This document shows, piece after piece, positions 17,453-47,289 of a DNA stretch of 64,000 nucleotides. Origin of the DNA: a virus (taxonomy: Duplodnaviria > Heunggongvirae > Uroviricota > Caudoviricetes > Thumleimavirales > Hafunaviridae); the IMG/VR virus record IMGVR_UViG_2595698612_000001, positions 10,520-74,519 of that record; one strand, given 5' to 3'. The position numbers and the translations under genes are program-made. The notes below the pieces were generated by a model, which searched no databases, was not told the origin of the DNA, and saw nothing but the letters and a program-made list of their open reading frames with translations. Position 1 is the first letter of the stretch. Every line of letters begins with the position of its first letter.

Positions 17453-17455
17453 CTT

Positions 17456-17506
17456 CACTCTAATAGACGTGAGACAAGGACTTAAAGATACCTCTTTGAG
17501 TCTTTA
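17456..17506 (-). promoter_or_regulatory. composite operator/promoter element, copy i (A: CACTCTAATAGACG; B: GACTTAAAGATACC; C: TCTTTGAGTCTTTA)
   Basis: One of six copies of a conserved ~50-bp element made of two palindromic modules. It sits directly upstream of gene 16616..17452. Confidence 0.55.
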
Positions 17507-17518
17507 ACACTCAACAAT

Positions 17519-17647
17519 ATGATACCTGAACTCGCAAACACGCCACCTCTCGTAGCGTGGCTACTCGGATTCTTCATGGCATTGGCACTCAAGCGCGGTC
17601 GAATCGAGCAGATAATTGACCGATTCCTCCCGACAGACGACTAACAC
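17519..17647 (+). CDS. small hydrophobic ORF (42 aa, not in track)
   Basis: MIPELANTPPLVAWLLGFFMALALKRGRIEQIIDRFLPTDD lies between inverted element copies i and ii. Predicted single TM helix. Confidence 0.25.
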
Positions 17648-17649
17648 TC

Positions 17650-17702
17650 TAAGAACAAAGTCGGCATCTTTAAGTCTTTAGTTGCCGTCTATTAGAGTGA
17701 GG
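17650..17702 (+). promoter_or_regulatory. composite operator/promoter element, copy ii (inverted relative to copy i; faces nrdJ)
   Basis: GGCATCTTTAAGTC ... CCGTCTATTAGAGTGAGG. Reverse-complement orientation of copies iii-v. Confidence 0.5.
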
Positions 17703-17744
17703 AGCTTACGACGAAGCGAACCTAACTGGTTCACCTCGAAATCC

Positions 17745-17783
17745 ACCCCACACTACCCAACTCGGTAGTGTGGGGCCTTTTTC
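17745..17783 (+). terminator. perfect 11-bp stem hairpin CCCCACACTAC-N8-GTAGTGTGGGG followed by CCTTTTTCC in the nrdJ leader (attenuator/terminator-like)
   Basis: Seen directly in sequence. Lies between promoter element ii and the nrdJ ATG. Confidence 0.4.
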
Positions 17784-17881
17784 CATCTAACTGATTCACT
17801 TAGTTGAGACTGAGATAGAACAAACACCTCGATGTAGTGAATCACTCTGAGTAGTTCACCTACTATATTACTATACACAAA

Positions 17882-20299
17882 ATGTCCGTAGTCACTACTG
17901 AAACCGAAACCGAAGAACAGACTGTTGAAACCCCCATCAAGACCGCCGACGATTCTCTCACCGTAGAAGAACGCCTTACAGACAACGCTCTCCACGGTAT
18001 TCTCCCGGCCCGCTACTTCCGCAAAGACTCGGAGGGTAACATCATCGAGGATGCTGACGACCTGTTCCGACGAGTCGCTGAAAACGTCGCTGGAGCTGAG
18101 AACGACGAGGACTTCGAGAAGTGGGCTGACGAGTTCCAGTACCAGATGGAAACCCTCCGGTTCATGCCGAACAGCCCGACCCTGATGAACGCCGGGACGG
18201 ACATGAACCAACTCTCTGCGTGCTTCGTGATTGAACCCCGCGACGACATGGAAGACATTTTTGAGACGGCTCAGCAGGCCGCTCTCATCTTCCAGAGCGG
18301 GGGCGGCGTCGGCTATGCCTTCTCCCACCTCCGACCCAAGGGAGCGTTCATCAATTCGACTGGCGGCGAAGCGAGCGGCCCGGTGAGCTTTATGCGGGTC
18401 TTCGATGAGACGTGTAATCAGGTGAAGCAGGGCGGGAAGCGCCGGGGCGCTCAGATGGGTATTCTCCGCGCCGACCACCCGGACGTGGGCCGGTTCATCG
18501 TGGCGAAGCGGAACGAGGGCGACCTTGCGAACTTCAACATCTCGGTCGCTACGACGGACGCCTTCATCGAGGCAGTTGACTCACAATCTTCCTACACTCT
18601 CTACGACCCCGAGACGGACTACGAGGAGCCGTACACCGTGCGGGAGGCATCGGCCCACTTCTACTCCCCCGAGTATCAGGACAACCCGCGTGACGCCTTT
18701 GACGACGGCGAGGGCGCTATCGTAGAGGAGAACCTGTGGCGGGACTACGCCGACGAAATCGAGTGCGAGCTGTACGGCGAGCGCGTCTCCCTCCGCGAGA
18801 AGTGGGAGGGCCACGAGGGTCTTCGCCTCGAAGTGGGTGAGCCGATGGAGCTTCCCGCCGCGTTCATTTGGGACGTGATGATTGACGGGGCGTGGCGCAA
18901 CGGTGAGCCGGGACTGTTCAACTTCGAGGAGTCGAACCGCCAGCACTCCTTCGACGTGGACGAGTACCCCGAGTTCCGAATGAACGCGACTAACCCCTGC
19001 GCCGAGCAGATGCTCGTGGAGTACGAGGCGTGCAACCTCGGTCACATCAACCTCAGTCTGATGCTGAACGAGGACGCCCCGACCTACGACGAGTTCCTTC
19101 AGGACAAGCTGATGGACATTGCGAACGGCGACCTTTCCACCCGCGAAGCCGTGGAGTGGTACTTCGAGGAGGTCACGAACTTTGAAGACCTGAATCGAAC
19201 CATCGAGGCTGGTACTCGCTTCCTCGATAACGTGGTCACGCAGTCCGACTTCCCCATCCCCGAGATTACCGAGCGCGTCAACGGGATGCGGAAAATCGGA
19301 CTCGGTATCATGGGCTTCGCGCAGATGCTTTTCCAGATGGGGATTCCCTACGGCACGCAGGACTCCTACGAGATGGCGCGGTGCGTCATGCGGTACATCG
19401 ACCGGAAGGGAACGTGGGCGTCCCACAATCTCGCCAAGGAGCGCGGCGTGTTCTCCTACTGGGACAAGTCGAAGTACGCCGACCCGACCGAGTACGACGA
19501 GTGGTTCGCGGCCCGCACCGGGCTTGACCCGAACGACTGGAAGGGTGGGTTCCCCATCCGAAACCACAACATCACGACAATCGCCCCGACCGGGACGACC
19601 TCGATGATTGCGAACACGACGGGTGGGTGTGAGCCTGCCTACAACGTGGCGAACTTCAAGAACGTCAGCGAGGACATTCAGGGCGACGACCTGCTCGTGG
19701 AGTTTGACGACTACTTCCTTCGGACGCTCGAAGCGAACGACCTCGATGTGGAGAGCATCAAGGAGGAGGCCGAGCGGCTGATGCGGAACAACGAGTTCGA
19801 CGGCGTTGACGACCTCTCTATCCCCGAGGAGATAGCCGAGATTTTCGTCACGACGCAGGACTTGTCCTCCGAACAGCACGGACTGATGCAGAGAGCGTTT
19901 CAGGAGTTTTGTGACTCCGGCATTAGCAAGACGGTCAACCTCCCGAACAGCGCGACCCACGACGACGTGAGCGAAGCCTACCAGCTCGCCCTCGATGCGA
20001 ACCGGCGCGGCGCGGTTATCAAGGGCCTCACCGTGTACCGGGACGGCTCTCGGGACGTTCAGGTTCTCACGACGCGCGTGGACAACAATCTGGACGACGA
20101 GGGCGACCGCGACGACGACCTGCTCGAACTATACCTCAAGGGAGAGGTGAGTGAGAAGGCGGCGGTTCAGCTCGGTATCGTTGGCGAGGACGACGTAGGT
20201 TCGGACACGCTCACCTGCCCGGAGTGCGGTGACGGTGAGCTTGAGAAGACGGACGACTGTGCGGTGTGTCCCGAGTGCTGGTACTCGCCGTGCAAGTAG
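17882..20299 (+). CDS. nrdJ: ribonucleotide reductase class II, adenosylcobalamin-dependent (805 aa) with C-terminal zinc ribbon
   Basis: Catalytic-site motif TNPCAEQ...EACNLGHINL and overall class II architecture. C-terminal CPECG...CAVCPECWYSPCK. Confidence 0.9.
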   Translation: MSVVTTETETEEQTVETPIKTADDSLTVEERLTDNALHGILPARYFRKDSEGNIIEDADDLFRRVAENVAGAENDEDFEKWADEFQYQMETLRFMPNSPTLMNAGTDMNQLSACFVIEPRDDMEDIFETAQQAALIFQSGGGVGYAFSHLRPKGAFINSTGGEASGPVSFMRVFDETCNQVKQGGKRRGAQMGILRADHPDVGRFIVAKRNEGDLANFNISVATTDAFIEAVDSQSSYTLYDPETDYEEPYTVREASAHFYSPEYQDNPRDAFDDGEGAIVEENLWRDYADEIECELYGERVSLREKWEGHEGLRLEVGEPMELPAAFIWDVMIDGAWRNGEPGLFNFEESNRQHSFDVDEYPEFRMNATNPCAEQMLVEYEACNLGHINLSLMLNEDAPTYDEFLQDKLMDIANGDLSTREAVEWYFEEVTNFEDLNRTIEAGTRFLDNVVTQSDFPIPEITERVNGMRKIGLGIMGFAQMLFQMGIPYGTQDSYEMARCVMRYIDRKGTWASHNLAKERGVFSYWDKSKYADPTEYDEWFAARTGLDPNDWKGGFPIRNHNITTIAPTGTTSMIANTTGGCEPAYNVANFKNVSEDIQGDDLLVEFDDYFLRTLEANDLDVESIKEEAERLMRNNEFDGVDDLSIPEEIAEIFVTTQDLSSEQHGLMQRAFQEFCDSGISKTVNLPNSATHDDVSEAYQLALDANRRGAVIKGLTVYRDGSRDVQVLTTRVDNNLDDEGDRDDDLLELYLKGEVSEKAAVQLGIVGEDDVGSDTLTCPECGDGELEKTDDCAVCPECWYSPCK

Positions 20300-20396
20300 A
20301 CTGAGGTAATCAGTTAGCAAGCTTCCCCATCGGGCCTTACGGCTCGGTGGGGATTTTTTGCGTTTCGGGGGAGAGAAAGAGCCTCGATGCGTCTGT

Positions 20397-20585
20397 TCAC
20401 GAGAAGATTTCCTCGGGCGGGACGTTCCCGTTGAGGTGCTGTTGTTTCTCCCACTCGATTTCGCCGGAGATTTTCCCGTAGAGTTCTGCGGCGATGGTTC
20501 GGTCTTCGTAGTCGCGGTCGGGGTTGTCCTTGATGTGTTCCATTTCGTGTTCGAGGAACGCGAGTTGTTTCGGGGTCAACTCCAT
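20397..20585 (-). CDS. hypothetical protein (62 aa from internal ATG)
   Basis: Acidic coding-like ORF. TTTTATATACC box about 25 nt upstream of the ATG at 20585 suggests a leaderless transcript. Confidence 0.4.
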   Translation of the reverse strand: MELTPKQLAFLEHEMEHIKDNPDRDYEDRTIAAELYGKISGEIEWEKQQHLNGNVPPEEIFS

Positions 20586-20810
20586 ATAAAGAACCACACA
20601 CCGTGGGTATATAAAACGGGGGGTGTCGGGTGGGACTTTATTTCCCATCATTCGGTTGTGGAAACGCGGTGATACACGCACGGCATACGGGGCTATACCC
20701 CCTATTTATTTATAAGCAGAGTTGGTAGTAGAGGGTACAGAGGCACGCAGAAGGGGTAGTTACCGGCAAAGGTAGCCCCTTTCAGGGCCGAAGGCCACCT
20801 CGGTAAAGCG

Positions 20811-20857
20811 CGTCCTTGGTAAGGACGAGAGCGGGGGTTCAAATCCCCCCTCAGGCT
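20811..20857 (+). other. tRNA-Thr(GGU)-like 3' half (anticodon arm to acceptor 3' strand); candidate attP core
   Basis: CGTCC-TTGGTAA-GGACG anticodon arm and GGGGG-TTCAAAT-CCCCC T-arm are present. The 5' half does not fold as a tRNA. Lies immediately upstream of the integrase. Confidence 0.4.
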
Positions 20858-20868
20858 TTCAGCCTTCA

Positions 20869-20893
20869 GGGGGCTTCTCACCCCCTTTTGCGT
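20869..20893 (+). terminator. hairpin GGGGG-cttctca-CCCCC followed by TTTTG
   Basis: Seen in sequence directly after the tRNA-like fragment. Confidence 0.35.
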
Positions 20894-21073
20894 GCTTCTT
20901 GGGAGCGAAAAAATGCACACCAAGAAAGCACTCTACCCACAAACGTACACCCCCGCGCCGTCTTGCGATTCCGTGAACTGTCAGGACACTATAACTCTGA
21001 ACCCCGCGCGAGCGCGTATCCTCAACGGTGGTGTCCCGGCTTGAACCGGAACGACCCACTCGACAGCGTGGAA

Positions 21074-22234
21074 ATGAGCGCGGCATCCGAGGATATACCA
21101 CCCGCGCCCGAACCCATCGAGTTCGGCTTCCCACTCGTGAGCCAACGCTCGCGCGAAGACCTCGAACAGTTCGGCCTCAACATGGTACAAGACTACCACG
21201 ACTTCAAAGAGGAAGTCCTGACGTGGCTCGGCAACTACGGGAAGAACCCCGACAAGTACGAAGGACTCGCCCGCACCACGCTTGAGTCCACGCACTACAA
21301 GCTCGAAACCGTCTTCCGCTGGTTATGGAAATACGAGGGCCAATACACAACCACCTTCACGCCCGAACACGCGGATAAATTCATCTCGCTGTTGAATCAA
21401 GCCGACTCGATGATTGACAGCACCGTGCTTCACCACGCCAAGGACATACGCCGGTACTTCCGCTACTGTAACCACGCGCAGGGCAAAGACTACGATTGGG
21501 AACCCGACCTCGAACTCAGTCAGTCCAACGGCGACGAGCGAGACTACCTCCGACGCGCCGCGTTCGAGCCGCTGTACCAATCCGCGCTCAGTCACTCATC
21601 GGTCAAGTCCTACTACTCGTGTACGCCGGAGGAACGCGCCGAGTTGAAAACCTACGTCTCTCAGCGCCTCCAAGTCCCGAAGGAAAAAGTCGGGGCCGAC
21701 GAGTTCAAGCAAGCAAACTCGTGGAAGTACCCATCTATGATTGCGACGACTCTCGATACCGGGCTTCGACCCATCGAGGTCGGACGAGCGAAGGTGTCGT
21801 GGGTGAACCTCCAAGATAACGAGCTGAACATCCCGAAGGACGAATCCACGAAGAACGAGGGCCATTGGAACTGCGCGATTCAGAAGCGCACGGCGAAGGC
21901 GCTCGAACGCTGGATAGACGAGCGAGACGCTATCGAGAAGTACGACAGTCGGGACGAACTATGGCTCACGCAGAAAGCCCGCCCCTACAACTCCGACTCG
22001 TGTAACGGCCTGCTTGACCGAATCATCGAGTCGGGGAACGTCCCGATACCCGACCACCGGAAAGACGACCTCTCGTGGTACAGCATCCGCCACGGAGTCG
22101 CTACGTACTGGGCGAACCACGTCGGCCCCCACCACGCGAAAGAACAACTCCGGCACAAGAGCGTCACGACGACGATGAAGTACCTCCACTCGGACTCAGA
22201 CACCCGAGGGAGCGCGGTCGAACAAATCTGGTAG
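21074..22234 (+). CDS. int: tyrosine recombinase / integrase (start trimmed to ATG 21074)
   Basis: C-terminal catalytic region contains HxxR and the KYLH tyrosine (WYSIRHGVATYW...LRHKSVTTTMKYLH). The track's longer N-terminal extension overlaps the tRNA-like element and is rejected. Confidence 0.8.
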   Translation: MSAASEDIPPAPEPIEFGFPLVSQRSREDLEQFGLNMVQDYHDFKEEVLTWLGNYGKNPDKYEGLARTTLESTHYKLETVFRWLWKYEGQYTTTFTPEHADKFISLLNQADSMIDSTVLHHAKDIRRYFRYCNHAQGKDYDWEPDLELSQSNGDERDYLRRAAFEPLYQSALSHSSVKSYYSCTPEERAELKTYVSQRLQVPKEKVGADEFKQANSWKYPSMIATTLDTGLRPIEVGRAKVSWVNLQDNELNIPKDESTKNEGHWNCAIQKRTAKALERWIDERDAIEKYDSRDELWLTQKARPYNSDSCNGLLDRIIESGNVPIPDHRKDDLSWYSIRHGVATYWANHVGPHHAKEQLRHKSVTTTMKYLHSDSDTRGSAVEQIW

Positions 22235-22235
22235 G

Positions 22236-22721
22236 TCAGTCGTCGGCAATCGACGCGACCGACTCCATCCCCCGCTGATTCAATCGGTACTCCTTCTTCC
22301 GACCGTCATTATCGTGGGGTCGCTTCTCTATGACTCCGCGCTCCGACAGCTCCCACAGGATTTGGCTCACGTCGTCCGGGTCTATATCGCAGTCCTCGGT
22401 GAGAGCGGCCTTCACCTCGTTCGTCGTATGCCACTCGTCTCCATTGTGGTTGTAGAGGAACGTGGCGAGCTTCCGTGTTCGTGACCCCTCCTCGAAGGTG
22501 ACTAACTCTATCCCTCCCCCATCCGGTTCTCCGTCCCTCTCGATTTCCTCTCCCGTGATGTATTCCGTGAGGTCAATCGGTGACTCAGCCTCGATTGTCA
22601 CCCTGATGTTCTCGATGGATTCGTTGAACCCGACTTCCTCCATGAACTGATTGAAAGCATCGAGGGAGTTGTCGCCCGACAATTCCAGAGTCATAACCCC
22701 GTCTGATTGGTTTGACGACAT
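22236..22721 (-). CDS. winged-helix transcriptional regulator (161 aa), convergent with integrase
   Basis: C-terminal wHTH-like segment (VSQILWELSERGVIEKRPHDNDGRKKEYRLN). Acidic N-terminal domain. Confidence 0.5.
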   Translation of the reverse strand: MSSNQSDGVMTLELSGDNSLDAFNQFMEEVGFNESIENIRVTIEAESPIDLTEYITGEEIERDGEPDGGGIELVTFEEGSRTRKLATFLYNHNGDEWHTTNEVKAALTEDCDIDPDDVSQILWELSERGVIEKRPHDNDGRKKEYRLNQRGMESVASIADD

Positions 22722-22851
22722 AATTAAACGGTTCAGTACCCCGCCTGATAAAATCCGTGGCCCTCAGATGTTCCGCACTCGTACTAAAAACAAAAAAGCC
22801 CCCGACCACGGGGGGTCGGGGGTGGCAAACACTACTGCATCTTTAGAACCG

Positions 22852-23142
22852 CTACGCCGTCGCTGGTTTGTTCTGCTCGCTATACTTCCAGAACTCAGTT
22901 TCCTCAGAGTGTAACCGAGCGTGGTCAGACGCCGACATGAGACTCAGATTAGACGGTCTGTTGTCCCACCGAACGCCGTTGAGGTGGTGGACTTGATTCT
23001 GACAGACAGCCTCGAAGCCGTACTCCGCGAGCATAATTAACCGATGAATCGCAACCTCCCGCTGGACGCCCTCGTACTCATTCGTCGCTATCTCGTAGCC
23101 GTGATGCCAGCAATGACCGGCTGGACTTGTATCAGACGACAC
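22852..23142 (-). CDS. HNH endonuclease (96 aa)
   Basis: HHLNGVRWDNRPSNLSLMSASDHARLH matches the HNH His-Asn-His motif; Cys/His-rich N-terminus. Confidence 0.65.
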   Translation of the reverse strand: MSSDTSPAGHCWHHGYEIATNEYEGVQREVAIHRLIMLAEYGFEAVCQNQVHHLNGVRWDNRPSNLSLMSASDHARLHSEETEFWKYSEQNKPATA

Positions 23143-23143
23143 G

Positions 23144-24508
23144 TTACTTCTTGAAGTTCATCACGGGCCGGAGACGGTCAACGACCTCTGCGGTCGGCTT
23201 GATGTGTTCCTCGATGAGTTCCGGCGGCTTGTAGGCTTCCGGCACTTCGTCACCCGGCACACGGGCCGAGTACGTTCCGTTCTCGTACATCCGCTTGCGG
23301 GCTTCGTCGGCGTCGAACTGCTCGTGTGCCCATCCACGGCTACCAAGTCGGCCCGCTCCGTGGGGAGCCGAGTAGTTGTAGTCCGGGTTCCCGTTCCCGA
23401 TACACAGAAGCGTTCCGTCCTCCATGTTCATCGGGATAGCGAACAGATTACCGGCAGAGGCTCGCGTGGAACCCTTCCGAATCATCATATCCTCGAAGTC
23501 CACGTAGTTGTGCGGGGAGTCGAGGAACTTGGTAATCGACGCATCGAGGGTTTGAGCCACTTCCTGAACCATCAGGAGGCGATTGAAGCTCGCGTAAGTC
23601 TGAGCGAGCATCATATCGTAGTAGTACCCGTAGGCTTCGCGGCCTTCGAGGTAGTCGAGGTCTTTGTTCCGGTTCGCGTCCGGGGAGTACGACTTGATTT
23701 CCTCCCCGATACGCCCGATTTCCTCGCCGTCGTTGTAGAGCTTGATTTTCTCCCAATCCGGGGAGCCGTCCGGGTTCGCGTAGTGCTTCAACCGCTCGCC
23801 CATCTCGCCCCACTTCACGTCGGCGTCACGGTGTTCGGTCGCCTTCTCCTGCCAGTACGCCGCGACCTTCTGACCGAGGTTGCGGGAACCGGAGTGAACG
23901 ACGACCCACAGCTCGTCGGACTGCTCGGACTCGGCAATCTCGATGAAGTGATTACCGGAGCCGAGCGTTCCGAGGGAACGGAGCGCGTATCTCTTTCTGA
24001 TTCCGACGCGCTTGCACATCTTCTCGAAGTAGTCCGGGCGGAACATCCCCTCGTCCCGGCTCTCGTAGTCGAAGTCCATCGCGTCGTAGAAGTGGAGTAG
24101 CTTCTCGTTGGCCTTCCACCACGGGAACGACCACTCAAGGTCAACCTCCGGCTCTTTGTGAACGCGACCAGTCCCCATCGGAATCCGGTCGCGCACCTCT
24201 TTGTTCACCTCGCGGAAGTCGTCTATGTCGGAGGGCTTGTCGGCTTCCGACACATCGAGGCGGGCCGCTGTCATTCCACAACCAATATCCCCGCCTACCG
24301 TTTTCGGAATCACGCGGTCTGTCAGAGGCATCGAGAACCCGACGATACAGGCAGGCCCGAGGCCTCCGTGACAGTCCGGCATGAACTTCACCGGGTTCTG
24401 GAACGCCTCGTGGTTAACCATCTCCTTTATCTCCTCTTGGAGTCCGTCTTCCACTTCTTCTTCTGGTAGGTGTACCTCTGCTGTCGTACTGCTTCCTTCT
24501 ACAATCAT
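23144..24508 (-). CDS. rtcB: RtcB-family RNA 3'-phosphate ligase (454 aa, no intein)
   Basis: Hallmark motifs DIGCGM, GSGNHFIEI and the HGAGR nucleophile-His motif. Full-length RtcB architecture. Confidence 0.85.
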   Translation of the reverse strand: MIVEGSSTTAEVHLPEEEVEDGLQEEIKEMVNHEAFQNPVKFMPDCHGGLGPACIVGFSMPLTDRVIPKTVGGDIGCGMTAARLDVSEADKPSDIDDFREVNKEVRDRIPMGTGRVHKEPEVDLEWSFPWWKANEKLLHFYDAMDFDYESRDEGMFRPDYFEKMCKRVGIRKRYALRSLGTLGSGNHFIEIAESEQSDELWVVVHSGSRNLGQKVAAYWQEKATEHRDADVKWGEMGERLKHYANPDGSPDWEKIKLYNDGEEIGRIGEEIKSYSPDANRNKDLDYLEGREAYGYYYDMMLAQTYASFNRLLMVQEVAQTLDASITKFLDSPHNYVDFEDMMIRKGSTRASAGNLFAIPMNMEDGTLLCIGNGNPDYNYSAPHGAGRLGSRGWAHEQFDADEARKRMYENGTYSARVPGDEVPEAYKPPELIEEHIKPTAEVVDRLRPVMNFKK

Positions 24509-24723
24509 TAGTTCTGTTTAGATAGAGTGTATAACTCTGAGTGTTCTACTACGGTACTGTCTTAGTTGAGTGAACAACCCTCGATGTGGTAAAACTCAAA
24601 GTAGGTAACTATCAGTAGGTAACTACTAAGAGTATATATCTAAGATAGATATTTCGCCCGCGTTATGCGCTCGCGCGAGCTTATTCGGATGTTTCGTCGT
24701 ATAGTACCGATACGGTACTATAT

Positions 24724-24753
24724 GACTTAAAGATGCCGATTTAAGTCTTGAGG
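24724..24753. promoter_or_regulatory. palindromic B-module GACTTAAAGATGCCGATTTAAGTC in RtcB upstream region
   Basis: Inverted halves GACTTAAA / TTTAAGTC. Preceded by a perfect inverted repeat ATAGTACCG-ata-CGGTACTAT at 24696-24718. Confidence 0.4.
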
Positions 24754-24755
24754 GG

Positions 24756-24968
24756 CTACTGAGGCGGCTCCAAAAACCGAATCGGAACCGACCACGAACC
24801 CTTCAAGAACCACACGAAGAACCACGGATACCCGAACATAGTCGCCAGCATATTCAGAAGCGAAACCACCAGCACCGCGTAGAACGCTACCTCCAAGAAC
24901 AGAAGCGAAAACACCTGAATCGTGAACCCGAGGTAGAACGAGTAGATGTAGGTGTTCTCAGTCTTCAT
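24756..24968 (-). CDS. small membrane protein (70 aa)
   Basis: Two predicted hydrophobic helices. Confidence 0.4.
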   Translation of the reverse strand: MKTENTYIYSFYLGFTIQVFSLLFLEVAFYAVLVVSLLNMLATMFGYPWFFVWFLKGSWSVPIRFLEPPQ

Positions 24969-27035: not shown

Positions 27036-27037
27036 TT

Positions 27038-27380: not shown

Positions 27381-27426
27381 CATAGATATGTCTCTCTGGT
27401 TCAGATTAGCGTACAGAACAGTCGCT

Positions 27427-27482
27427 CCTCACTCTATTAGACGGTGCGTAAAGACTTAAAAATTCCTCTTTTCGTCTTATCC
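27427..27482 (+). promoter_or_regulatory. composite operator/promoter element, copy iii (C module degenerate); heads the thyX-dcd leftward operon
   Basis: CCTCACTCTATTAGACGG ... AAGACTTAAAAATTCC ... Confidence 0.5.
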
Positions 27483-35458: not shown

Positions 35459-35473
35459 TGTAGTGGAGGGCGC

Positions 35474-36251: not shown

Positions 36252-36339
36252 TTAGTGTCCTGCTGGTTGCGTACTGCTAAAGAGTCGGAGAGCGGTACAT
36301 AACTCTTAAGATAAGAGTCGGAACTATCTCGATGAGTCT

Positions 36340-38753: not shown

Positions 38754-38878
38754 GTGTGTGAGTGGTCATTCGGTACACCTCTCGGTGAAGCTCGTACAGC
38801 CCGCGCTCTGACACTCGGGACAGTATTCGGCAACACCACCCGTCGATGCGTCACAACATCGGCAGTTCCACCGACCGT

Positions 38879-40363: not shown

Positions 40364-40440
40364 TGCGAGCGTAATTTCAGGAACCTATTTCATGGCCTAA
40401 GCTCGGGACTATACTACTTCATCGAGCGGGAGAACAGAGC

Positions 40441-40686
40441 CTACTCGTCCTTTCGGACGTGCTTCTCCCACCGCTCCATGATGCTCCTCTCCGTCGCTTC
40501 CCACGCGAGGTCTTCCAGCGCCTCGATGACTTCCTCCGGGTCGTCAACAGGCTCGCCGCCCTCGTGGGGAATCTCGGCGGTCAGGAACGTGTGGGCCGTC
40601 GCTGGCTCGTACTGACCGAGCTGTTTCTTCTTGTCCGTACCGACCTGTACCTCCGTCACGTATTGCTTGGCGTCGTCCTTGTCCAT
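40441..40686 (-). CDS. hypothetical acidic protein (81 aa)
   Basis: GAGTCTTTA motif 25 nt upstream of ATG. Confidence 0.4.
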   Translation of the reverse strand: MDKDDAKQYVTEVQVGTDKKKQLGQYEPATAHTFLTAEIPHEGGEPVDDPEEVIEALEDLAWEATERSIMERWEKHVRKDE

Positions 40687-40717
40687 TTCTAAGAGTTAGG
40701 GGCGTGTTTCCGAGTCT

Positions 40718-41671
40718 TTACATCCGACGCTCGATTTCTGCAACCACCGCATCGAGGTCGTAGTCAGCGTCACCGACTTCGCCGTTCACGAGCTGTTCGA
40801 CGTTCTCCGGGTTCGTCTCGCCCGTGTTCGCCATGAAGTCGATAATCTGGTCAGCGGCCTGCGGGACACCCTCGGGAAGCCCCTCGTCGTCGCTCTCGTC
40901 GCCACCGAGCGAACCACCGGAGTCACCGGAGGACTCGTCGCCGCCGTCGCTGTCACCGCCGCCGTTGTTAGCGATGGTGATACCGGCCAGCGTCTCGGCG
41001 TCGAGAACCTTCGCGTCCGTGTATTCCACGTAGTCGTCTTCGCTCTCCGCGTCGTCCGGCAGGAAGCCGTCCTTGTAGTAGGAGAGGATGATACGGCGGC
41101 CTTCGAGGTCGTCGCGGAGTTCGAGAGCGTCCTCGTTCAGCCAGTTGTAGTTGTCGTCCTTGTCGTCCACGGCGTCGTGACCGGCGGGAGTGACGACCTT
41201 GGCGAAGGTGCGGTTCTTCGTCCCGTTCGAGAGCCACAGCGTACAGTTGCCGAGGCTCACCGGGTCGTCGCCCTCCTGAACCGTCTCGGAGAGTTTGTAC
41301 GTGAAGTCGTTGCTCCCGAACTGCTCGTTGTGCCGGGAGGGAACTTCGTCGCCGCTCACGTCCTCCGCGAGTGCGCCGTTCTCGTCGGTGGCGAACCACG
41401 TATCCCACCCGAAGACCTTGACCGTATCATCGTCCGGGTCGCCGGGCGACCGCTCCATCACGATTCCGTCGATTACCTCCACGTCGTCGGCGTCCACGAT
41501 GAGGGACTGACCGTAGGACGAACCCGTGTATTCCCCGAGACGGGAAATCTTGAACGAGATGAAGGCGTAGTTGTTCATCTTGAGCGAAAGGCGCTCCTCG
41601 AAGTCGCCGCCATTCGCTCCGCTGTTGTTGTTGCTACCGCCGCTGTTGTAGTCGGTGTCGAAAAGGCTCAT
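40718..41671 (-). CDS. hypothetical acidic protein (317 aa) with Gly/Asp/Ser-rich C-terminal tract
   Basis: Long coding ORF, first gene after the tRNA cluster. Confidence 0.5.
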   Translation of the reverse strand: MSLFDTDYNSGGSNNNSGANGGDFEERLSLKMNNYAFISFKISRLGEYTGSSYGQSLIVDADDVEVIDGIVMERSPGDPDDDTVKVFGWDTWFATDENGALAEDVSGDEVPSRHNEQFGSNDFTYKLSETVQEGDDPVSLGNCTLWLSNGTKNRTFAKVVTPAGHDAVDDKDDNYNWLNEDALELRDDLEGRRIILSYYKDGFLPDDAESEDDYVEYTDAKVLDAETLAGITIANNGGGDSDGGDESSGDSGGSLGGDESDDEGLPEGVPQAADQIIDFMANTGETNPENVEQLVNGEVGDADYDLDAVVAEIERRM

Positions 41672-41752
41672 TATGTTGAACTCTGGTTTCTCTGGTTCTG
41701 GTCGTTGGTCGGTACGTAGCCAGCTACGGCATAGGTATTTGCGCCGTAGAAA

Positions 41753-41823
41753 GTCTGGACGGACGGAATCGAACCGCCCTTGGGAGGGTTACAGCCTCCG
41801 CGTTCGCCTTGAACACTTCCAGA
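41753..41823 (-). tRNA. tRNA-like gene, possible tRNA-Tyr(GUA) with non-canonical acceptor/D-arm
   Basis: Perfect anticodon arm GGAGG-CTGTAAC-CCTCC and T-arm GGCGG-TTCGATT-CCGTC. Acceptor 6/7 bp and D-arm short (GTTC-AAGGC-GAAC). Boundaries approximate. Confidence 0.35.
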
Positions 41824-41903
41824 AATGGCCTATGATTGGGGGTGTCCACACCGCGTGAACGGGAGTGGCTACAAAGGTACGGCCAGCACCTCGCGTAGCC
41901 AAG

Positions 41904-41976
41904 CGCCGAGGACGGGACTCGAACCTGTGGCTACCTGATTAACAGTCAGGCGCTCTACCAACTGAGCTACCTCGGC
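41904..41976 (-). tRNA. tRNA-Asn(GUU)
   Basis: GCCGAGG acceptor, D-arm GCTC-AGTTGGTAG-AGCG, anticodon arm CCTGA-CTGTTAA-TCAGG, T-loop TTCGAGT; acceptor ends complementary. Confidence 0.85.
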
Positions 41977-42003
41977 AAGAGAAGGGGAGGATTGGGTGCT
42001 TGT

Positions 42004-42058
42004 CCTCACTCTATTAGATGTGGGACTAAGACTTAAAGATACCTATTTGAGTCTTAAG
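42004..42058 (+). promoter_or_regulatory. composite operator/promoter element, copy iv; heads tRNA-Asn and downstream leftward genes
   Basis: CCTCACTCTATTAGATG ... GACTTAAAGATACC ... TATTTGAGTCTTAAG. Confidence 0.55.
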
Positions 42059-42139
42059 AGTCGTCGGGAGGGATACCCCGCTCGATGAAGTGAATTGGAA
42101 GTGGAGAACCGAAGCCGGGGAGAGAAATGATAGAAGACA

Positions 42140-42349
42140 TTACTTATCGAAGCGGTTGACCCACGTAGAGAGATTCTTGACGGAGAGGCCGTCAGAGCGA
42201 ATATCGTCAGCGAGAGAATTGATAGCAGAGAGTAGAGTAGAATCGTTCCACGAGGCGGGGTAGTCGAGAGAGATGATGTCCACCTCGTCGCCGTTGCCGA
42301 AGGGTTCGAGAGTCGCTTCGAGGTCGCCGGAGGTCTGAGTGTAGCTCAT
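42140..42349 (-). CDS. hypothetical protein (69 aa)
   Basis: Coding-like small ORF. Confidence 0.35.
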   Translation of the reverse strand: MSYTQTSGDLEATLEPFGNGDEVDIISLDYPASWNDSTLLSAINSLADDIRSDGLSVKNLSTWVNRFDK

Positions 42350-42477
42350 GCGGGAGTGTTGATGGGATTCACGACGTGGTTCGGCTCCGCAGAGGGAGCG
42401 AGCGGGACTTCCGGGCCGGTGGGAGTATCGAAGGAGACAGCGCCGACGCCACCCGCCGGAGGGAGGTCGTCGTCCAT

Positions 42478-42885
42478 TTACTCCTCCGCGAGAGCGTCGA
42501 AGTTCGGGACGACCGTGCCGTTCACTCGGTTGCCGGGAACGGACATTCCCGTAAGCTCGAACACGTCGGCCACCTTTTCGATACCGAACGCATCGAGCAG
42601 GTCGAAGAACTCAGCGGAAGCATCCTCGATTCCATCAGGGAGGTCGAACTCCAAGTCTGCCGGGTTCGGGCCGTTCTCTGTGTACGTGGGAATGACCACG
42701 TACAGGTCTTCGGTCAGCTCACCACGGTCGATGAGTCTCGGCTCACCGAGCTGAATCTGCACCTCGAAGCCGGAGTCGGTGCGTTCCGTGATTGCGTTGA
42801 AGACTGCCTCCGCCCCACCGAGGTCGAGGTAGTCGTATTCGTCGCCGTTGCTACTGAACAGTAGGTTTCGGATGAAGCCAAACAT
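42478..42885 (-). CDS. hypothetical acidic protein (start trimmed to MFGFIRNLLF, 135 aa)
   Basis: Start preceded by the ACCAGAGAGAAA leader motif. The N-terminal extension in the track is Arg-rich and unlikely to be real. Confidence 0.45.
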   Translation of the reverse strand: MFGFIRNLLFSSNGDEYDYLDLGGAEAVFNAITERTDSGFEVQIQLGEPRLIDRGELTEDLYVVIPTYTENGPNPADLEFDLPDGIEDASAEFFDLLDAFGIEKVADVFELTGMSVPGNRVNGTVVPNFDALAEE

Positions 42886-42967
42886 AGTTTCTCTCTGGTT
42901 TCCAGCAGATAACCGCCGCTGGCACGGCTTAGGTAGCGTAGTACCGAATCCCCTATGACGGAGGGGA

Positions 42968-43039
42968 GAGCAACCGGCGGGAATCGAACCCGCAGAGCGT
43001 GGCTTTCGCTTCGCCCCCATTGCCAGTAGGTGTCGGTTG
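42968..43039 (-). tRNA. tRNA-like element: perfect 7-bp acceptor stem and T-arm, non-canonical D/anticodon region (anticodon undetermined; possible pseudo-tRNA)
   Basis: GCAACCG...GCGGG-TTCGATT-CCCGC-CGGTTGC-T. The internal 40 nt do not give a standard cloverleaf. Confidence 0.4.
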
Positions 43040-43115
43040 CGAGTCGCGGATTGCCGCGCCCACGCCCATCAAGGGGCATGGTCACGCGGCCTCCACCGGG
43101 GCGACTACCCGGCTC

Positions 43116-43186
43116 ATGCGACCGGAGGGAATCGAACCCTCGTTGGCGGCTTGGAAGGCCGCCGTGATACCACTACACTACGGTCG
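43116..43186 (-). tRNA. tRNA-Gly(UCC)
   Basis: GCGACCG acceptor, D-arm TAGTGTAGTGGTATCAC, anticodon arm GCGGC-CTTCCAA-GCCGC, T-arm GAGGG-TTCGATT-CCCTC, 3' CGGTCGC-A. Confidence 0.85.
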
Positions 43187-43196
43187 CAAAACGGAG

Positions 43197-43331
43197 AACG
43201 AGCGTTCTACTCGTTCTTCATTTCGTACATCGTCTCCTCGTGTTCCAGCTCAGCCTGCCGCCGGAAGTAGCCGAACGCGACCACCGTAACCACGGTCACG
43301 AGGAACAGCCACAGAAGAATCAAGAAGACGA
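43197..43331 (-). CDS. small membrane peptide (44 aa, not in track)
   Basis: MFKVVFLILLWLFLVTVVTVVAFGYF... lies directly downstream of the SPFH gene. Coordinates approximate. Confidence 0.3.
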
Positions 43332-43342
43332 CTTTGAACATC

Positions 43343-44218
43343 CTACTCGTCCTCGTCGTTCGTGTCCTTCACGAGAGTCGGAGTTTCGTCGGAGGGGAGG
43401 TAGATGGTCTTCCCGTCCGAGTTCTTGATTGCCTCGATGTAGCGAATCTGGATGAGTTCGGGGTTGTTACGAACGGACTCAGCGACGATGCGGTTCGCCT
43501 CTGCCTCACCGCGAGCCTTCTCGATTTCGGCGCGAGCCTCCTGCTTCGCCACCTCAACCTCGGCCTCAGCCTTCAGTTCGCGCTGTTGGGCGACCTCCTT
43601 CTCGGTGATGGAACGCTCGTAGGACTCGGGGAAGTTGACCTTCGTAATCTGAACGGAGTCCAGAACGAGTCCCGTCTCAGAGAACTTCTCCTCAAGCTGT
43701 TCACGAGCATCCATCGTAATCTCGGTCTGACCCTGCGACGTGTAGACCTCGCTCGTCGGCATACTGCCCGTGGTCACGAGCATCTGCTTGGCGAGCGTCG
43801 TCCGAATCATCCGCTTCTCGGCGTTCTCAAGAGTGCGGTAGTCCGTGTAGAAGTCAGTCACCGCCTCCGGGTCGTTCGGGAGCTGGTAGCGAACGGTCAC
43901 GTCGAAGGTCGCCTCCACACCATCGGCGGTTTTCACCACGATGGGGTCAGCATATTCCTTCGCGCCCTCTCCGGGGTTCGAGGTCATGGTGTACGCCTGC
44001 TGTCGGGTGGAGAGCGTCACCACGTCGTTCTTGACGGGAGTAATCCAGTTTGCTCCGGGCTGAATTACCTCTCCGGTTGCGTCACCCCACTCGGTGACGA
44101 CGCCGACGTTTCCTTCATCAACGGGGTTCCATGCCATCGCACCGACGATTCCCGACGTGAGAATCAGGAACGCCATTGCGACTCCGATTGCCTTCAGTTT
44201 GAAAGTAGTTAGTTCCAT
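43343..44218 (-). CDS. SPFH/band-7 (stomatin/prohibitin-like) membrane protein (start trimmed to MELTTFKLK, 291 aa)
   Basis: N-terminal TM helix, then SPFH core, then a long EA-repeat coiled coil (ELKAEAEVEVAKQEARAEIEKARGEAEANRI). Confidence 0.7.
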   Translation of the reverse strand: MELTTFKLKAIGVAMAFLILTSGIVGAMAWNPVDEGNVGVVTEWGDATGEVIQPGANWITPVKNDVVTLSTRQQAYTMTSNPGEGAKEYADPIVVKTADGVEATFDVTVRYQLPNDPEAVTDFYTDYRTLENAEKRMIRTTLAKQMLVTTGSMPTSEVYTSQGQTEITMDAREQLEEKFSETGLVLDSVQITKVNFPESYERSITEKEVAQQRELKAEAEVEVAKQEARAEIEKARGEAEANRIVAESVRNNPELIQIRYIEAIKNSDGKTIYLPSDETPTLVKDTNDEDE

Positions 44219-44270
44219 TTCGTAGATTTCTCTCTGGTCTGTTTCATAGAGCGATACACCGCATCGAGTT

Positions 44271-44290
44271 GGGAGGAATCGAACCTTCCC
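44271..44290 (-). other. isolated T-arm-like hairpin (GGAAGG-TTCGATT-CCTCCC) upstream of SPFH gene; possible tRNA remnant
   Basis: T-loop consensus is present but no complementary acceptor strands were found. Confidence 0.25.
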
Positions 44291-44404
44291 TCTAAGCGTA
44301 CCAGCAACCCGGAAAAGCCACCGCAGGGCGGTAGCTGGACACCAACGAGTTAAACCATGACAGGACTCAGCCAAGCAAACGAGTCGAGGGGGCCACCGCG
44401 ACCT

Positions 44405-44458
44405 CCTCACTCTATTAGACGTGGTACTATGACTTAAAGATACCGCTTTGAGTCTTTG
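44405..44458 (+). promoter_or_regulatory. composite operator/promoter element, copy v; heads the SPFH leftward operon
   Basis: CCTCACTCTATTAGACG ... GACTTAAAGATACC ... GCTTTGAGTCTTTG. Confidence 0.55.
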
Positions 44459-44514
44459 ACCCCGTGCTAAACAGATAGCAAAGACTTAAGCGAGCTAACT
44501 CCGTCTTTGTACGC

Positions 44515-45066
44515 ATGGCGAAGACGAAGCACAAGAATCAGGAGAAAGTCGTCAAGTGTCCCGTGGAGGGATGTGACCACGAGGGCTTATCCCGTGGGAT
44601 GCACCTTCACGTTCGTCAATCCAGCGGGAACGGCCACGGGCCGAACGGGGATGTACCCGAACACTTGGACTTTAGTGACTTGGAAGTAGTGGGGACAAAA
44701 GAAGTTGAAATGGATTACCCGTCTGAGCGCAAAGGAGAGGACGTAGCCCGTCTCTGCCCCTTCTGCCGACGCCCGTTCAGCGGGTATCAGGGAGTGATGA
44801 TTCACCTCGGTCAGATTCAGGGGAAGGAGAACCACCCTGAGGACGCGACCGAGATGGTCGATAAGGGAGACTGCCCGGTTGCTCACGTCGATGAGAACCG
44901 CAACGTGATTGAAGTGGTCGATGAGGGCGACCCCGACCTTATGCCGTCCACGGAAGACCGACGCGAAGGCTCCATCCCCCGCGCCGATGTGATTGGCTAC
45001 ATCGAGTGGGCGGAATCAGAAGGCCATCTCACGGCGGCCAACAAAGCCCGTGAAATGCTACTCTAA
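44515..45066 (+). CDS. zinc-finger protein (183 aa)
   Basis: CPVEGCDHEG...H.H and CPFCRRPF...H motifs. Confidence 0.5.
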   Translation: MAKTKHKNQEKVVKCPVEGCDHEGLSRGMHLHVRQSSGNGHGPNGDVPEHLDFSDLEVVGTKEVEMDYPSERKGEDVARLCPFCRRPFSGYQGVMIHLGQIQGKENHPEDATEMVDKGDCPVAHVDENRNVIEVVDEGDPDLMPSTEDRREGSIPRADVIGYIEWAESEGHLTAANKAREMLL

Positions 45067-45584
45067 GTCTCGATTTCGTCTCGCCACTTATTCGAGAAGA
45101 ACTCCGTCTCGTACTTCCACTTATTGATGGACGGGTCGTTACGGTACAACTCGTTCGTCAACTTCACCATCTCGTAGAAGCCCTGCTTCGTCAGGTACTC
45201 CTTCTCCCGGTACGCCGGGAGGATTTCTCCCATGAAGATGGACGCCAGCTCGCTCTGCTGAACCAAGTACGGAGCCAGCGGCCCGTAGAACCGCTCGATT
45301 GATTCAGCATCCGAGATTTTGAACAGCATCGTCGTCCCGCTATCCTTGATTTCCCACCGGACTCCCTGTTCGGAACAGTATTCCTCGAAAAGCCCGAACA
45401 CGGCGGTCTGTGGGTCGCTACGACTGATTTGAACGTATGGTTCTATCTTGTATCCTATCTTGAAGTCTTCATCCTCGCTTATTTCCACTCGGAACCGACC
45501 GAGTGAATCGACCACTCCGGCTATGTACGCTACGTCGTCCTCTTTCATACCACCCACTTTCGGGGCGGCCTGTGTTAATGTCAT
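45063..45584 (-). CDS. LAGLIDADG homing endonuclease, single-motif type (173 aa)
   Basis: AYIAGVVDSLGRF matches LAGLIDADG. Free-standing ORF antisense to its neighbours. Confidence 0.6.
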   Translation of the reverse strand: MTLTQAAPKVGGMKEDDVAYIAGVVDSLGRFRVEISEDEDFKIGYKIEPYVQISRSDPQTAVFGLFEEYCSEQGVRWEIKDSGTTMLFKISDAESIERFYGPLAPYLVQQSELASIFMGEILPAYREKEYLTKQGFYEMVKLTNELYRNDPSINKWKYETEFFSNKWRDEIET

Positions 45585-45598
45585 TCATTGTGCTGTCA

Positions 45599-45653
45599 CC
45601 AAAGACTTAGAATCGGTATCTTTAAGTCCTTAGTTACCGTCTATTAGAGTGAG
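45599..45653 (-). promoter_or_regulatory. composite operator/promoter element, copy vi (inverted); faces the AT-rich leader of gene 45838
   Basis: AAAGACTTAGAATC GGTATCTTTAAGTC ... CCGTCTATTAGAGTGAGG. Confidence 0.5.
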
Positions 45654-47277: not shown

Positions 47278-47289
47278 TAAGCCGTTGTC

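Follow-up and report, generated by a model that had tools for sequence, protein, structure and literature searches.

The window analysed here, a single stretch of 64,000 nucleotides, is a 100% match to positions 10520-74519 of the record of Halorubrum tailed virus 8 (HRTV-8; KC292020.1; genus Haloferacalesvirus). It carries six full copies of a conserved repeat, listed below together with a partial copy and a reduced palindromic site; names in brackets are those of the counterparts in the halovirus HF2, and TSS stands for transcription start site.

17453..17507, minus strand: copy i (HF2 IR6), predicted TSS at G 17460, 53/56 identical to IR6
17650..17704, plus strand: copy ii (HF2 IR5c), predicted TSS at G 17695, 54/56 identical to IR5c
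24700..24751, minus strand: seventh, partial copy (HF2 IR4.5), nhmmer E = 6e-7, upstream of RtcB (23144-24508)
27425..27480, minus strand: copy iii (HF2 IR4), predicted TSS at G 27434, 41/56 identical to IR4
42002..42057, minus strand: copy iv (HF2 IR3), predicted TSS at G 42011, 52/56 identical to IR3
44403..44458, minus strand: copy v (HF2 IR2), predicted TSS at G 44412, 48/56 identical to IR2
45600..45656, plus strand: copy vi (HF2 IR1c), predicted TSS at G 45647, 54/56 identical to IR1c
51043..51075, no strand assigned: alpha/beta-only palindrome that lacks gamma, TAAGACTCAGAGTAGTATCTATAAGTCTTTA

These repeats are not a new family: they are the published class I intergenic repeats (IRs) of HF1/HF2-type haloviruses, a class made up of IR1c, IR2, IR3, IR4, IR4.5, IR5c and IR6 (Tang et al. 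2002; Russ, Pfeiffer and Dyall-Smith, Viruses 2021, PMC8707807). In the GenBank record of HF2, IR1c, IR2, IR3, IR4, IR5c and IR6 are annotated as "intergenic repeats that contain promoter motifs". The correspondence between the two viruses is one-to-one (i with IR6, ii with IR5c, iii with IR4, iv with IR3, v with IR2, vi with IR1c, and the partial copy with IR4.5), with 41-54 of 56 nt identical copy for copy. A profile made from the HRTV-8 copies recovers the six with nhmmer E-values of 1e-16 to 1e-18, and on HF2 it finds exactly the six annotated sites plus IR4.5; the reciprocal search agrees. Searching CTCACTCTAWTAGA with up to two mismatches gave six matches, which are the six sites alone (0.27 expected from shuffles), and 30 columns of the 56-nt core are invariant across the six HRTV-8 copies. 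A previous, sequence-only reading of this DNA had located all six copies with an offset of only 1-3 nt, and had correctly assigned one orientation to copies i, iii, iv and v and the opposite one to ii and vi. Its count of six holds for the full copies, but the partial seventh (24700-24751) and the alpha/beta-only site (51043-51075) were overlooked, and the ORF bracketed by copies i and ii, given there as 42 aa, encodes 41 aa. The functional orientation of the repeats is the reverse complement of the notation used in that reading and fits every downstream gene named in it.

The genes that follow the repeats are those of the replication arm. Copy i would drive gene 36 (16616-17452), whose ATG lies 8 nt after the predicted TSS, and copy ii would drive nrdJ (ATG 17882) through a structured 187-nt leader. 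Copy iii heads the unit that leads from gene 52 to thyX and dcd, with a first ATG at 27383 and a leader of 51 nt. The predicted TSS of copy iv is 35 nt upstream of tRNA-Asn (41976-41904), at the head of a long leftward replication unit; from its HF2 counterpart, IR3, an 18-kb transcript is made in which PolB and RtcB are contained (PMC8707807). Copy v heads a unit with a tRNA-Arg remnant and an SPFH/prohibitin gene, and copy vi faces genes 86/87 (45838 onward), 191 nt downstream, gene 87 encoding an ERCC4-type endonuclease. Copies ii, vi and v lie 187-194 nt upstream of their first protein-coding gene, not directly at it.

The partial copy keeps alpha and beta intact (CAAGACTTAAATCGGCATCTTTAAGTC) but has, in place of gamma, an inverted repeat of 9 bp, ATAGTACCG-ATA-CGGTACTAT (24701-24721). 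This arrangement of IR4.5, alpha and beta without gamma, is also found in HF2, HRTV-16 and HCTV-7, and has been described for HF2 (PMC8707807). The palindrome at 51043-51075 sits in the 49-bp gap between the stop of the Rad3-helicase gene and the start of gene 101, and its position is kept in HF2 (12171-12207), HRTV-16 and HCTV-7; the alpha/beta palindrome also stands alone at this eighth conserved site.

In HF2, class I IRs were characterised as archaeal promoters by reporter fusions, primer extension and scanning mutagenesis, with the TATA box in TCTTTAAGTC and the start G inside CGTCTNNTAGAG (PMC8707807). Every class I IR was active when fused to bgaH as reporter gene; the mapped start is a G within gamma, 26 nt downstream of the TATA motif, and mutating either the TATA box or the gamma/initiator (INR) abolishes activity (PMC8707807). 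Alpha and BRE mutations leave activity unaffected, and the non-TATA part of beta is likewise dispensable for basal activity (PMC8707807). Read in the direction of transcription, the cassette runs from alpha (tAAAGACTyAAAg) through a BRE-like region to beta (ATCTTTAAGTC) and, after 9 nt, to gamma (CGTCTAWTAGAGTGAGGAG); beta contains the TATA box TTTAAG, and the start G, that of TAG, follows the first T of this box by 26 nt.

The sequence of the HRTV-8 copies fits this layout closely. Beta is exactly TCTTTAAGTC in the partial copy and in every full copy except iii, and a search for GACTTAAAGATACC with up to one mismatch finds the IR sites alone in the genome. The gamma core CGTCTNNTAGAG is exact in 5/6 copies at an invariant spacing of 9 nt from beta; copy iv has CATCT, which it shares with most IR3-type orthologues, HF2 IR3 itself having CGTCT. 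As a matter of geometry only, position +26 counted from the TATA T is taken by the G of TAGAG in each of the six HRTV-8 copies and in their orthologues. The TSS positions in the list are predictions extrapolated from the HF2 mapping. Alpha (AAAGACTYA...) precedes the TATA box by some 18-19 nt and is present in copies i, iv, v and vi as well as in the partial copy, copy vi having 1 nt more between alpha and beta than the others. Copy iii has a weakened alpha and copy ii a degenerate one (TAAGAACAAAG), the latter just as in HF2 IR5c. Comparing HRTV-8 with HF2, motifs, length (~56 bp), number (six full copies and one partial), downstream genes and orientation are the same, and nothing essential differs. 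The most diverged pair is copy iii/IR4, in which alpha is weak and the TATA flank is altered, TTTTTAAGTC replacing TCTTTAAGTC in copy iii; besides, the tRNA-Arg downstream of IR2 is only a remnant in HRTV-8, and the two genomes were deposited in opposite orientations.

Each class I IR of HRTV-8 is most probably a self-contained promoter cassette read by the host archaeal RNA polymerase, and the set would launch seven early/middle units in the replication arm, namely those of gene 36, nrdJ, RtcB, thyX-dcd, tRNA-Asn through primase and PolB, SPFH, and the endonuclease unit. The archaeal TATA box that had been suspected in the TCTTTAAG core agrees with the experiments on the orthologous HF2 elements, and so does the suggestion of a shared promoter-type element, which would serve early/middle replication, nucleotide-metabolism and tRNA units. 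Experimental support (activity, TSS position, need for TATA box and initiator) comes from HF2; for HRTV-8 the evidence consists of sequence identity, orthology, synteny, orientation, genus restriction and the dyad described below. Taken together, we are highly confident that the repeats are class I IR promoter cassettes for early/middle units that include a putative regulator-binding inverted repeat.

The element is confined to its genus. A 66-nt copy compared with 50,697 phage records matched exactly the 41 haloferacalesvirus records, in 4-6 places each and at syntenic positions, and an exact-pattern scan for beta plus gamma in 185,579 prokaryotic species genomes gave 0 matches, with no sign of proviral or host copies in that collection. 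An nhmmer scan that covered record positions 10520-74519 placed the copies at window positions 17.4-45.7 kb, in the early/middle arm, and found none at 1-17 kb, in the morphogenesis arm. IR order, orientation and downstream genes are identical in HRTV-8, HF2, HRTV-16 and HCTV-7. The sequence-only reading had staked its proposal on conserved position in related viruses, and position is kept in all relatives examined, in line with the conservation of position and sequence already reported for IRs in the genus of HRTV-8 (PMC8707807).

Some of the regions behind the repeats have features of their own. The annotated GTG start of the SPFH gene (44410) overlaps copy v and is most likely over-extended, ATG 44218 being the better candidate from sequence comparison. 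We rejected a leaderless start at this GTG inside gamma: homology to the HF2 prohibitin begins at Met65, and the intervening DNA is the tRNA-Arg remnant. In the nrdJ leader, a hairpin at 17746-17775 followed by T5 shows compensatory changes. A search of the whole window with Rfam at gathering thresholds returned no match at the repeats or at the nrdJ leader, its matches being three tRNAs and two type II hammerheads only. The notion of a leader terminator after every IR was dropped, since a terminator scan was not enriched over shuffles (22 vs 18.6; 21 vs 17.8); the nrdJ leader hairpin was its sole standout after the repeats.

The cassette also has internal symmetry. The palindrome TCTAWTAGA noted by the sequence-only reading is present in 6/6 copies and in 56/58 distinct relatives. 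Its second dyad, GACTYAAAG ... CTTTAAGTC, is real but imperfect: clear in copies i and iv, weaker in iii, v and vi, and absent from ii. In i and iv, 10/12 arm positions pair, a level that 23 and 35, respectively, out of 2000 shuffles also reached. For single copies the dyad exceeds chance only modestly (shuffle p ~0.01-0.12; absent in ii/IR5c), and the copies being homologous, its recurrence is not independent evidence. Alpha is the mirror of the TATA-containing beta, with 9-13 of 15 positions matching the reverse complement in 52/58 distinct IR sequences. The half-sites AAGACT / AGTCTT lie on either side of the BRE and the TATA box at a centre-to-centre distance of 20 bp, or 21 bp in vi/IR1c, and 14/17 occurrences of AAGACTYA fall in intergenic DNA, which is 12% of the sequence. 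This mirror symmetry of alpha and beta is not mentioned in the HF2 study (PMC8707807).

Alpha and the non-TATA part of beta are near-invariant over the 58 distinct IR sequences, yet dispensable for basal activity in HF2, and because of this we infer an operator. The strongly conserved but dispensable parts (alpha and the non-TATA beta flanks) would form an inverted repeat that is likely to be bound by a putative dimeric regulator, probably of viral origin, which would set the timing of early/middle expression by controlling access of TBP/TFB. We tentatively propose, as a minority view even among our own expectations, that the IR is more than a promoter: a palindrome of ~30-40 bp with half-site AAGACTT, its centres two helical turns apart, would bracket BRE/TATA as the putative operator for a dimeric viral protein, specific to the genus, that acts as a switch for the whole early/middle regulon, and at some copies it might double as a mirrored TATA box for the leaderless gene of the 41-aa membrane peptide and for antisense RNAs. 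Published work on class I IRs describes neither the dyad nor its dual use as operator and mirrored TATA box, the conjecture of a regulator as such having also been made by the authors of the HF2 work (PMC8707807). HF2 promoters are active in Haloferax volcanii without any viral protein (PMC8707807), so any regulator would modulate the promoter and not be required for it.

Two encoded proteins are possible candidates for this role, although their matches to wHTH/MarR-like domains are weak and below threshold. One is the wHTH protein HRTV8_42 (22236..22721), encoded downstream of the RtcB unit and found in 41/41 element-bearing genomes. The other is the early CxxC-HTH protein HRTV8_96 (49482..49904), found in 51 records and homologous to HrrHF2_165, which the HF2 authors named as a candidate too (PMC8707807). 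A protein at 54506-54955, put forward earlier as an RHH regulator, was rejected as a general regulator: it has no Pfam match at E <= 0.01 and occurs in only 13/41 element-bearing records.

The same symmetry could serve a bidirectional promoter and not an operator, alpha on the opposite strand (TTTGAGTCTTT or TTTAAGTCTTT) being a second, mirrored TATA box; copy i would then fire the 41-aa ORF in the divergent direction, copies v and vi would fire gene 84 or 85, and the long antisense transcripts of HF2 would arise likewise. We find this possible but rather doubtful. The copy-i orthologues of HRTV-16 and HCTV-7 have an alpha arm that reads as a perfect TCTTTAAGTC on the opposite strand, with the ATG of the conserved 41-aa ORF following 23 nt later; in HRTV-8 and HF2 this distance is 24-25 nt. 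Such a geometry fits a leaderless mRNA, yet with 23-25 nt it is on the short side of what was mapped in HF2 (-24 to -28). Around copies i, v and vi the flanking genes diverge, so that a promoter is needed for the other direction too, while a reverse promoter at ii, iii or iv would meet the 3' ends of convergent genes and yield antisense RNA only. As for activity, HF2 IR1c and IR3 have weak reverse activity and IR3 has been proposed as the start of antisense transcript R52, but reporters with reversed class I IRs gave low values for these two and negligible ones for the rest, IR6 included (PMC8707807). Moreover, conservation of alpha is highest at AAGACT and not at the A/T stretch from which a mirrored TATA box would be formed. 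A strong promoter with no dedicated regulator is an unlikely alternative reading of the same conservation, in which the 56 bp would be optimal for the machinery of Halorubrum or Haloarcula, alpha would be an extended BRE/UP-like element in native hosts, and temporal control would come from elsewhere (transcript processing, antisense RNA, leader terminators). Constitutive activity of the HF2 promoters in a heterologous host without viral factors speaks for it (PMC8707807), as do the long leaders with conserved structure that follow some copies (the nrdJ hairpin and T5), which offer a control point after initiation. Against it, alpha and BRE mutations left HF2 activity unchanged (PMC8707807), and the exact sequence is strictly kept across paralogous sites, next to a separate class II late repeat, suggesting class-specific recognition.

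Two other explanations assign the repeats a role in DNA rearrangement. That they are mainly recombination or module-boundary sequences promoting mosaic exchange, with promoter activity secondary, seems quite improbable to us. A known large HF1/HF2 recombination junction does lie at or beside the IR5c/IR6 pair, as seen from the identity of HF1 and HF2 over 46500 to 48079, the first difference at 48080 (inside IR6) and dense divergence from 48232, and IRs are located at module boundaries. This is, however, one junction only, and module boundaries and promoters coincide anyway. In addition, homologous recombination would be poorly served by 56 bp with ~75% identity between paralogs, no rearrangement between paralogous IRs was seen in the four genomes compared, where order and orientation are fixed, and conservation of the TATA box and initiator is fully explained by the experimental promoter activity. 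The chance that the repeats are a MITE-like miniature mobile element spread through the genome is practically negligible, despite multiple copies in both orientations with an internal inverted repeat in each. We rejected it because every copy keeps its syntenic place and its orientation across the genomes compared; there is also no copy outside the early/middle arm, the aligned copies show no terminal inverted repeats at their ends and no flanking duplications, and the exact-pattern scan of 185,579 prokaryotic species genomes found 0 copies.

The element informs how tailed haloarchaeal viruses programme expression on the host RNA polymerase, and was already recognised and tested in HF2. What is added for HRTV-8 is a map of seven cassettes with predicted start sites, the probable correction of one over-extended gene start (SPFH), and the observation that the conserved-but-dispensable parts of the cassette form a dyad around the TATA box. 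From its sequence, this dyad may offer a concrete binding-site model for the putative temporal regulator.

Within the same viruses, the closest comparison is with the class II IRs of HF2 (29 bp), the late promoters of the morphogenesis arm, which are likewise conserved, repeated and reporter-active cassettes (PMC8707807). They differ from class I in being unrelated in sequence, shorter, strongly bidirectional and restricted to the late arm, and in starting transcription at A (PMC8707807). One class II-like copy lies in the window at ~10800-10824 (ATATATAAACCCTTTACCATTAATA). In other archaeal viruses, operator-over-promoter control is known from the repressor operators of phiH1 and from the F55 sites of SSV1 at the T5/T6/Tind promoters. 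There, dimeric HTH or RHH proteins sit on dyads over the TATA box or TSS and block TBP/TFB or RNA polymerase, an arrangement that for class I IRs would be a working model only; the sequences are unrelated, and the class I cassette is reused at seven transcription units, unlike a single lysis/lysogeny switch. Near-identical promoter copies that define a temporal gene class are known from the T7 class II/III promoters and from the T4 middle promoters with MotA boxes, and class I IRs resemble these in the many near-identical copies per temporal class. To our knowledge, HF2-group viruses encode no RNA polymerase. While T7 and T4 need a phage RNA polymerase or a sigma appropriator, class I IRs are read by the host archaeal TBP/TFB/RNAP.

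Over 11 kb around the first repeat copies, the sequence matches Halorubrum tailed phage 8 (HRTV-8, KC292020.1; family Hafunaviridae, genus Haloferacalesvirus) at 100% identity, and 40 further Haloferacalesvirus records match at 86-94%. Window positions equal record positions minus 10519, and the gene table of the repeat region was taken from GenBank. The six copies (i to vi) reported by the sequence-only reading are all present where it placed them, offset by 1-3 nt. With up to 2 mismatches allowed, the 14-mer CTCACTCTAWTAGA matches exactly these six copies, vs 0.27 matches expected from shuffles. They align without gaps save for a single additional base separating the upstream modules of copy vi, share 30 invariant columns out of 56 in their core, and score E = 1e-16 to 1e-18 against a profile HMM. 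The profile also uncovered two features that had been overlooked: a seventh, partial copy (24700-24751), in which both upstream modules are kept and a 9-bp inverted repeat, ATAGTACCG-ATA-CGGTACTAT, takes the place of the CGTCTAWTAGAG module, and a site with the two upstream modules only (51043-51075), in the 49-bp gap past the Rad3-helicase gene.

The type member of this genus is HF2. Its "class I intergenic repeats" (IRs), seven in number and 56-58 bp long, have three conserved motifs, namely alpha, beta (TCTTTAAGTC) and gamma (core CGTCTNNTAGAG) (Russ, Pfeiffer and Dyall-Smith, 2021; PMC8707807). In native orientation, all of them drive a bgaH reporter in Haloferax volcanii; primer extension maps the starts to a common G of gamma (2 nt further downstream in IR4.5), with a TATA box from -26 and a BRE at -33 to -37. 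When IR4 was subjected to scanning mutagenesis, the TATA box and the gamma/initiator region proved essential, and basal activity did not require alpha, the BRE or the rest of beta outside the TATA box (PMC8707807). Run against HF2, the HRTV-8 profile recovers exactly the six annotated IR sites (IR1c, IR2, IR3, IR4, IR5c and IR6, labelled in the GenBank record as repeat regions "that contain promoter motifs") plus IR4.5, and flanking genes give a one-to-one mapping between the two viruses.

Read in its functional orientation, the reverse complement of the earlier notation, the HRTV-8 cassette is tAAAGACTyAAAg (alpha), GG, tATCTTTAAGTC (beta, TATA = TTTAAG), 9 nt, and CGTCTAWTAGAGTGAGGAG (gamma). 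The start-site rule derived from HF2 (26 nt past the initial T of TTTAAG) leads to the same G of TAGAG in 6/6 HRTV-8 copies and in every orthologue checked.

Repeat copies in HRTV-8: predicted start and strand, distance to the first gene, HF2 counterpart (downstream gene) and identity to it
17460 (-), copy i: gene 36 ATG after an 8-nt leader; IR6 (gene 36 / HrrHF2_475), 53/56 nt
17695 (+), copy ii: nrdJ after a 187-nt leader; IR5c (ribonucleotide reductase), 54/56 nt
Partial copy (extent 24700-24751): IR4.5 (RtcB)
27434 (-), copy iii: gene 52 after a 51-nt leader; IR4 (thyX-dcd), 41/56 nt
42011 (-), copy iv: tRNA-Asn after 35 nt; IR3 (tRNA-Asn, replication genes), 52/56 nt
44412 (-), copy v: probable SPFH ATG 44218 after 194 nt; IR2 (SPFH/prohibitin), 48/56 nt
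45647 (+), copy vi: gene 86 after 191 nt; IR1c (ERCC4-endonuclease unit), 54/56 nt

Each of the six full cassettes points toward the genes that the sequence-only reading had named, so its placement of the element at operon heads is correct; its interpretation as a shared promoter-type element was essentially right too. By orthology with the HF2 promoters, each HRTV-8 cassette would be a host-RNA-polymerase promoter of an early/middle transcription unit.

Three of the copies (ii, v and vi) are followed by a protein-coding gene only after ~190 nt. The HF2 interval past IR1c holds further, separately mapped promoters within 12-bp repeats (PMC8707807), and CTNTTAGT boxes of a similar kind are found in the corresponding part of HRTV-8. 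Repeated CTNTTAGT(A/T) boxes at 45740-45800 (+), in the stretch that separates copy vi from gene 86, include TACTATTAGTAA and TACTCTTAGTTA at 27 nt from each other; the boxes are the counterpart of the complex bidirectional promoter region of HF2 with its 12-bp direct repeats (T-17064/T-17022); their core resembles the gamma start-site sequence CTATTAG. The nrdJ leader past copy ii (17695-17884, +; 187 nt predicted) is unusually structured (MFE z = -6.45) and matches no Rfam family. Its terminator-like hairpin at 17746-17775, a 12-bp stem followed by T5, is retained across six distinct haloferacalesvirus leaders, in which two base-pair changes are compensatory. It may work as an attenuator or give rise to a short leader RNA ahead of the B12-dependent reductase gene. 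At copy v, the annotated GTG start of the SPFH CDS (HRTV8_83, 43343-44410, -) falls within gamma. Homology to HF2 prohibitin begins only at Met65 (ATG 44218), so the annotated CDS probably begins 64 codons too early; the surplus stretch (44218-44412 region) runs through the remnant of a tRNA-Arg present here in relatives, from which a 27-nt deletion in HRTV-8 has removed the anticodon arm.

HRTV-16 and HCTV-7 have the same seven sites in unchanged order and orientation. The element thus occupies the same syntenic positions in relatives, and the proposal, for which a lack of such conservation had been named as the refuting observation, survives. As a blastn query, a 66-nt copy matches only the 41 haloferacalesvirus records out of 50,697 phage records, at 4-6 places each. 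Searched as an exact pattern, beta plus gamma occurs in six isolates and five metagenomic viral contigs of IMG/VR, and 185,579 prokaryotic species genomes gave 0 matches. The element is characteristic of the genus. No difference separates HF1 from HF2 over 46500-48079; the first is at 48080, within IR6, and divergence is dense from 48232, so their known large recombination junction coincides with the IR5c/IR6 pair (HRTV-8 copies ii and i).

The palindrome TCTAWTAGA noted earlier is indeed in all six copies, and in 56/58 distinct relatives (W is A in 24 and T in 32). We give it no independent meaning, since four-base arms are unsurprising by chance in an element this long and it overlaps the start site essential for initiation. 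The second palindromic module reported in the sequence-only reading holds for copies i and iv (23 and 35 of 2000 shuffles), is weaker in iii, v and vi (p ~0.07-0.12) and is absent from copy ii. In a set of 58 distinct full-length IRs, alpha has the consensus tAAAGACTcAaA, which mirrors beta plus its 3' flank (reverse complement aAnGACTTAAAGAT): 9-13 of 15 arm positions match in 52/58 sequences, and 20 bp separate the GACT centre from the AGTC centre (21 bp for IR1c-type repeats). Individual copies exceed shuffles only modestly, and recurrence is not independent proof because the copies are homologous. The dyad still deserves notice: its positions are exactly the conserved positions that HF2 mutagenesis found unneeded for basal promoter activity, and the palindrome also occurs without gamma at the conserved eighth site (51043-51075). 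The 2021 HF2 paper makes no mention of a palindrome or dyad (PMC8707807). Intergenic DNA, 12% of the sequence, holds 14/17 occurrences of AAGACTYA, including three early-region promoters whose counterparts in HF2 were cloned there under the names IRA, IRB and IRC. The corresponding segments (59905-60020, 60150-60195 and 61003-61110, all -) start with alpha-like AAAGACTYAA; two share a ~110-nt repeat that contains a GGTTCGACTCC hairpin resembling a tRNA T-arm and finishes with GAGTGACACCTATG at a start codon, and the third has a gamma-like GAGAGTGAAGA ~26 nt past a TTAATAA box.

The alpha/beta dyad would be the binding site of a dimeric regulator, straddling the BRE and the TATA box. A competing reading takes alpha as a mirrored TATA box on the opposite strand. 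In the copy-i orthologues of HRTV-16 and HCTV-7, the opposite strand of alpha reads exactly TCTTTAAGTC, which lies 23 nt ahead of the ATG of a 41-aa ORF; the distance is 24-25 nt in HRTV-8 and HF2, and a spacing of 23-25 nt fits a leaderless mRNA. In reverse orientation, however, IR1c and IR3 of HF2 gave low reporter activity and the other repeats a negligible one, a result that is not decisive because the 58-bp fragments lacked the native start region. The hydrophobic ORF itself (17519-17644, +), which copies i and ii flank, has conserved, annotated counterparts in HF2, HF1, HRTV-16 and HCTV-7 and belongs to no Pfam family.

Returning to a regulator at the dyad, the HF2 authors also propose virus-encoded factors acting on the IRs, and their promoters are active without viral proteins (PMC8707807); a putative regulator would therefore modulate expression, most simply by repression. 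Among the candidates proposed earlier, the wHTH protein (22236-22721) has only sub-threshold MarR/PadR-type matches; its copies in relatives are annotated as winged-helix, and it is found in exactly the 41 element-bearing records. The HTH protein (49482-49904), with a sub-threshold MarR match, is 76% identical to HrrHF2_165, a CxxC and HTH protein singled out by the HF2 authors (PMC8707807), and occurs in 51 records, including more distant relatives without the element. Phyletic co-occurrence is weak evidence here because many genus-specific genes share the pattern. The "RHH" protein (54506-54955) cannot be a general regulator, having no Pfam match and being present in only 13 records.

Elsewhere, two type II hammerhead ribozyme matches lie in the early gene arm (54986-55053 and 52889-52955, both -; 51.2 and 45.4 bits, both exceeding the gathering score of Rfam); in HF2, one is annotated in the corresponding position, ahead of the Rad3 helicase gene. 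In the morphogenesis arm, 10800-10824 (+), ATATATAAACCCTTTACCATTAATA, fits the published 29-bp class II (late) intergenic repeat, described as three A/T blocks with C runs between them and containing CCCTTTAC, and is probably the IR11c homologue.

The HRTV-8 element is not novel: earlier work on this genus has described it and characterised it by experiment. To the HF2 account we add HRTV-8 coordinates and predicted start sites, the overlooked partial copy and the alpha/beta-only site, the mirror symmetry of alpha and beta, a possible reverse-TATA geometry at the small ORF, and a probable correction of the SPFH start codon.
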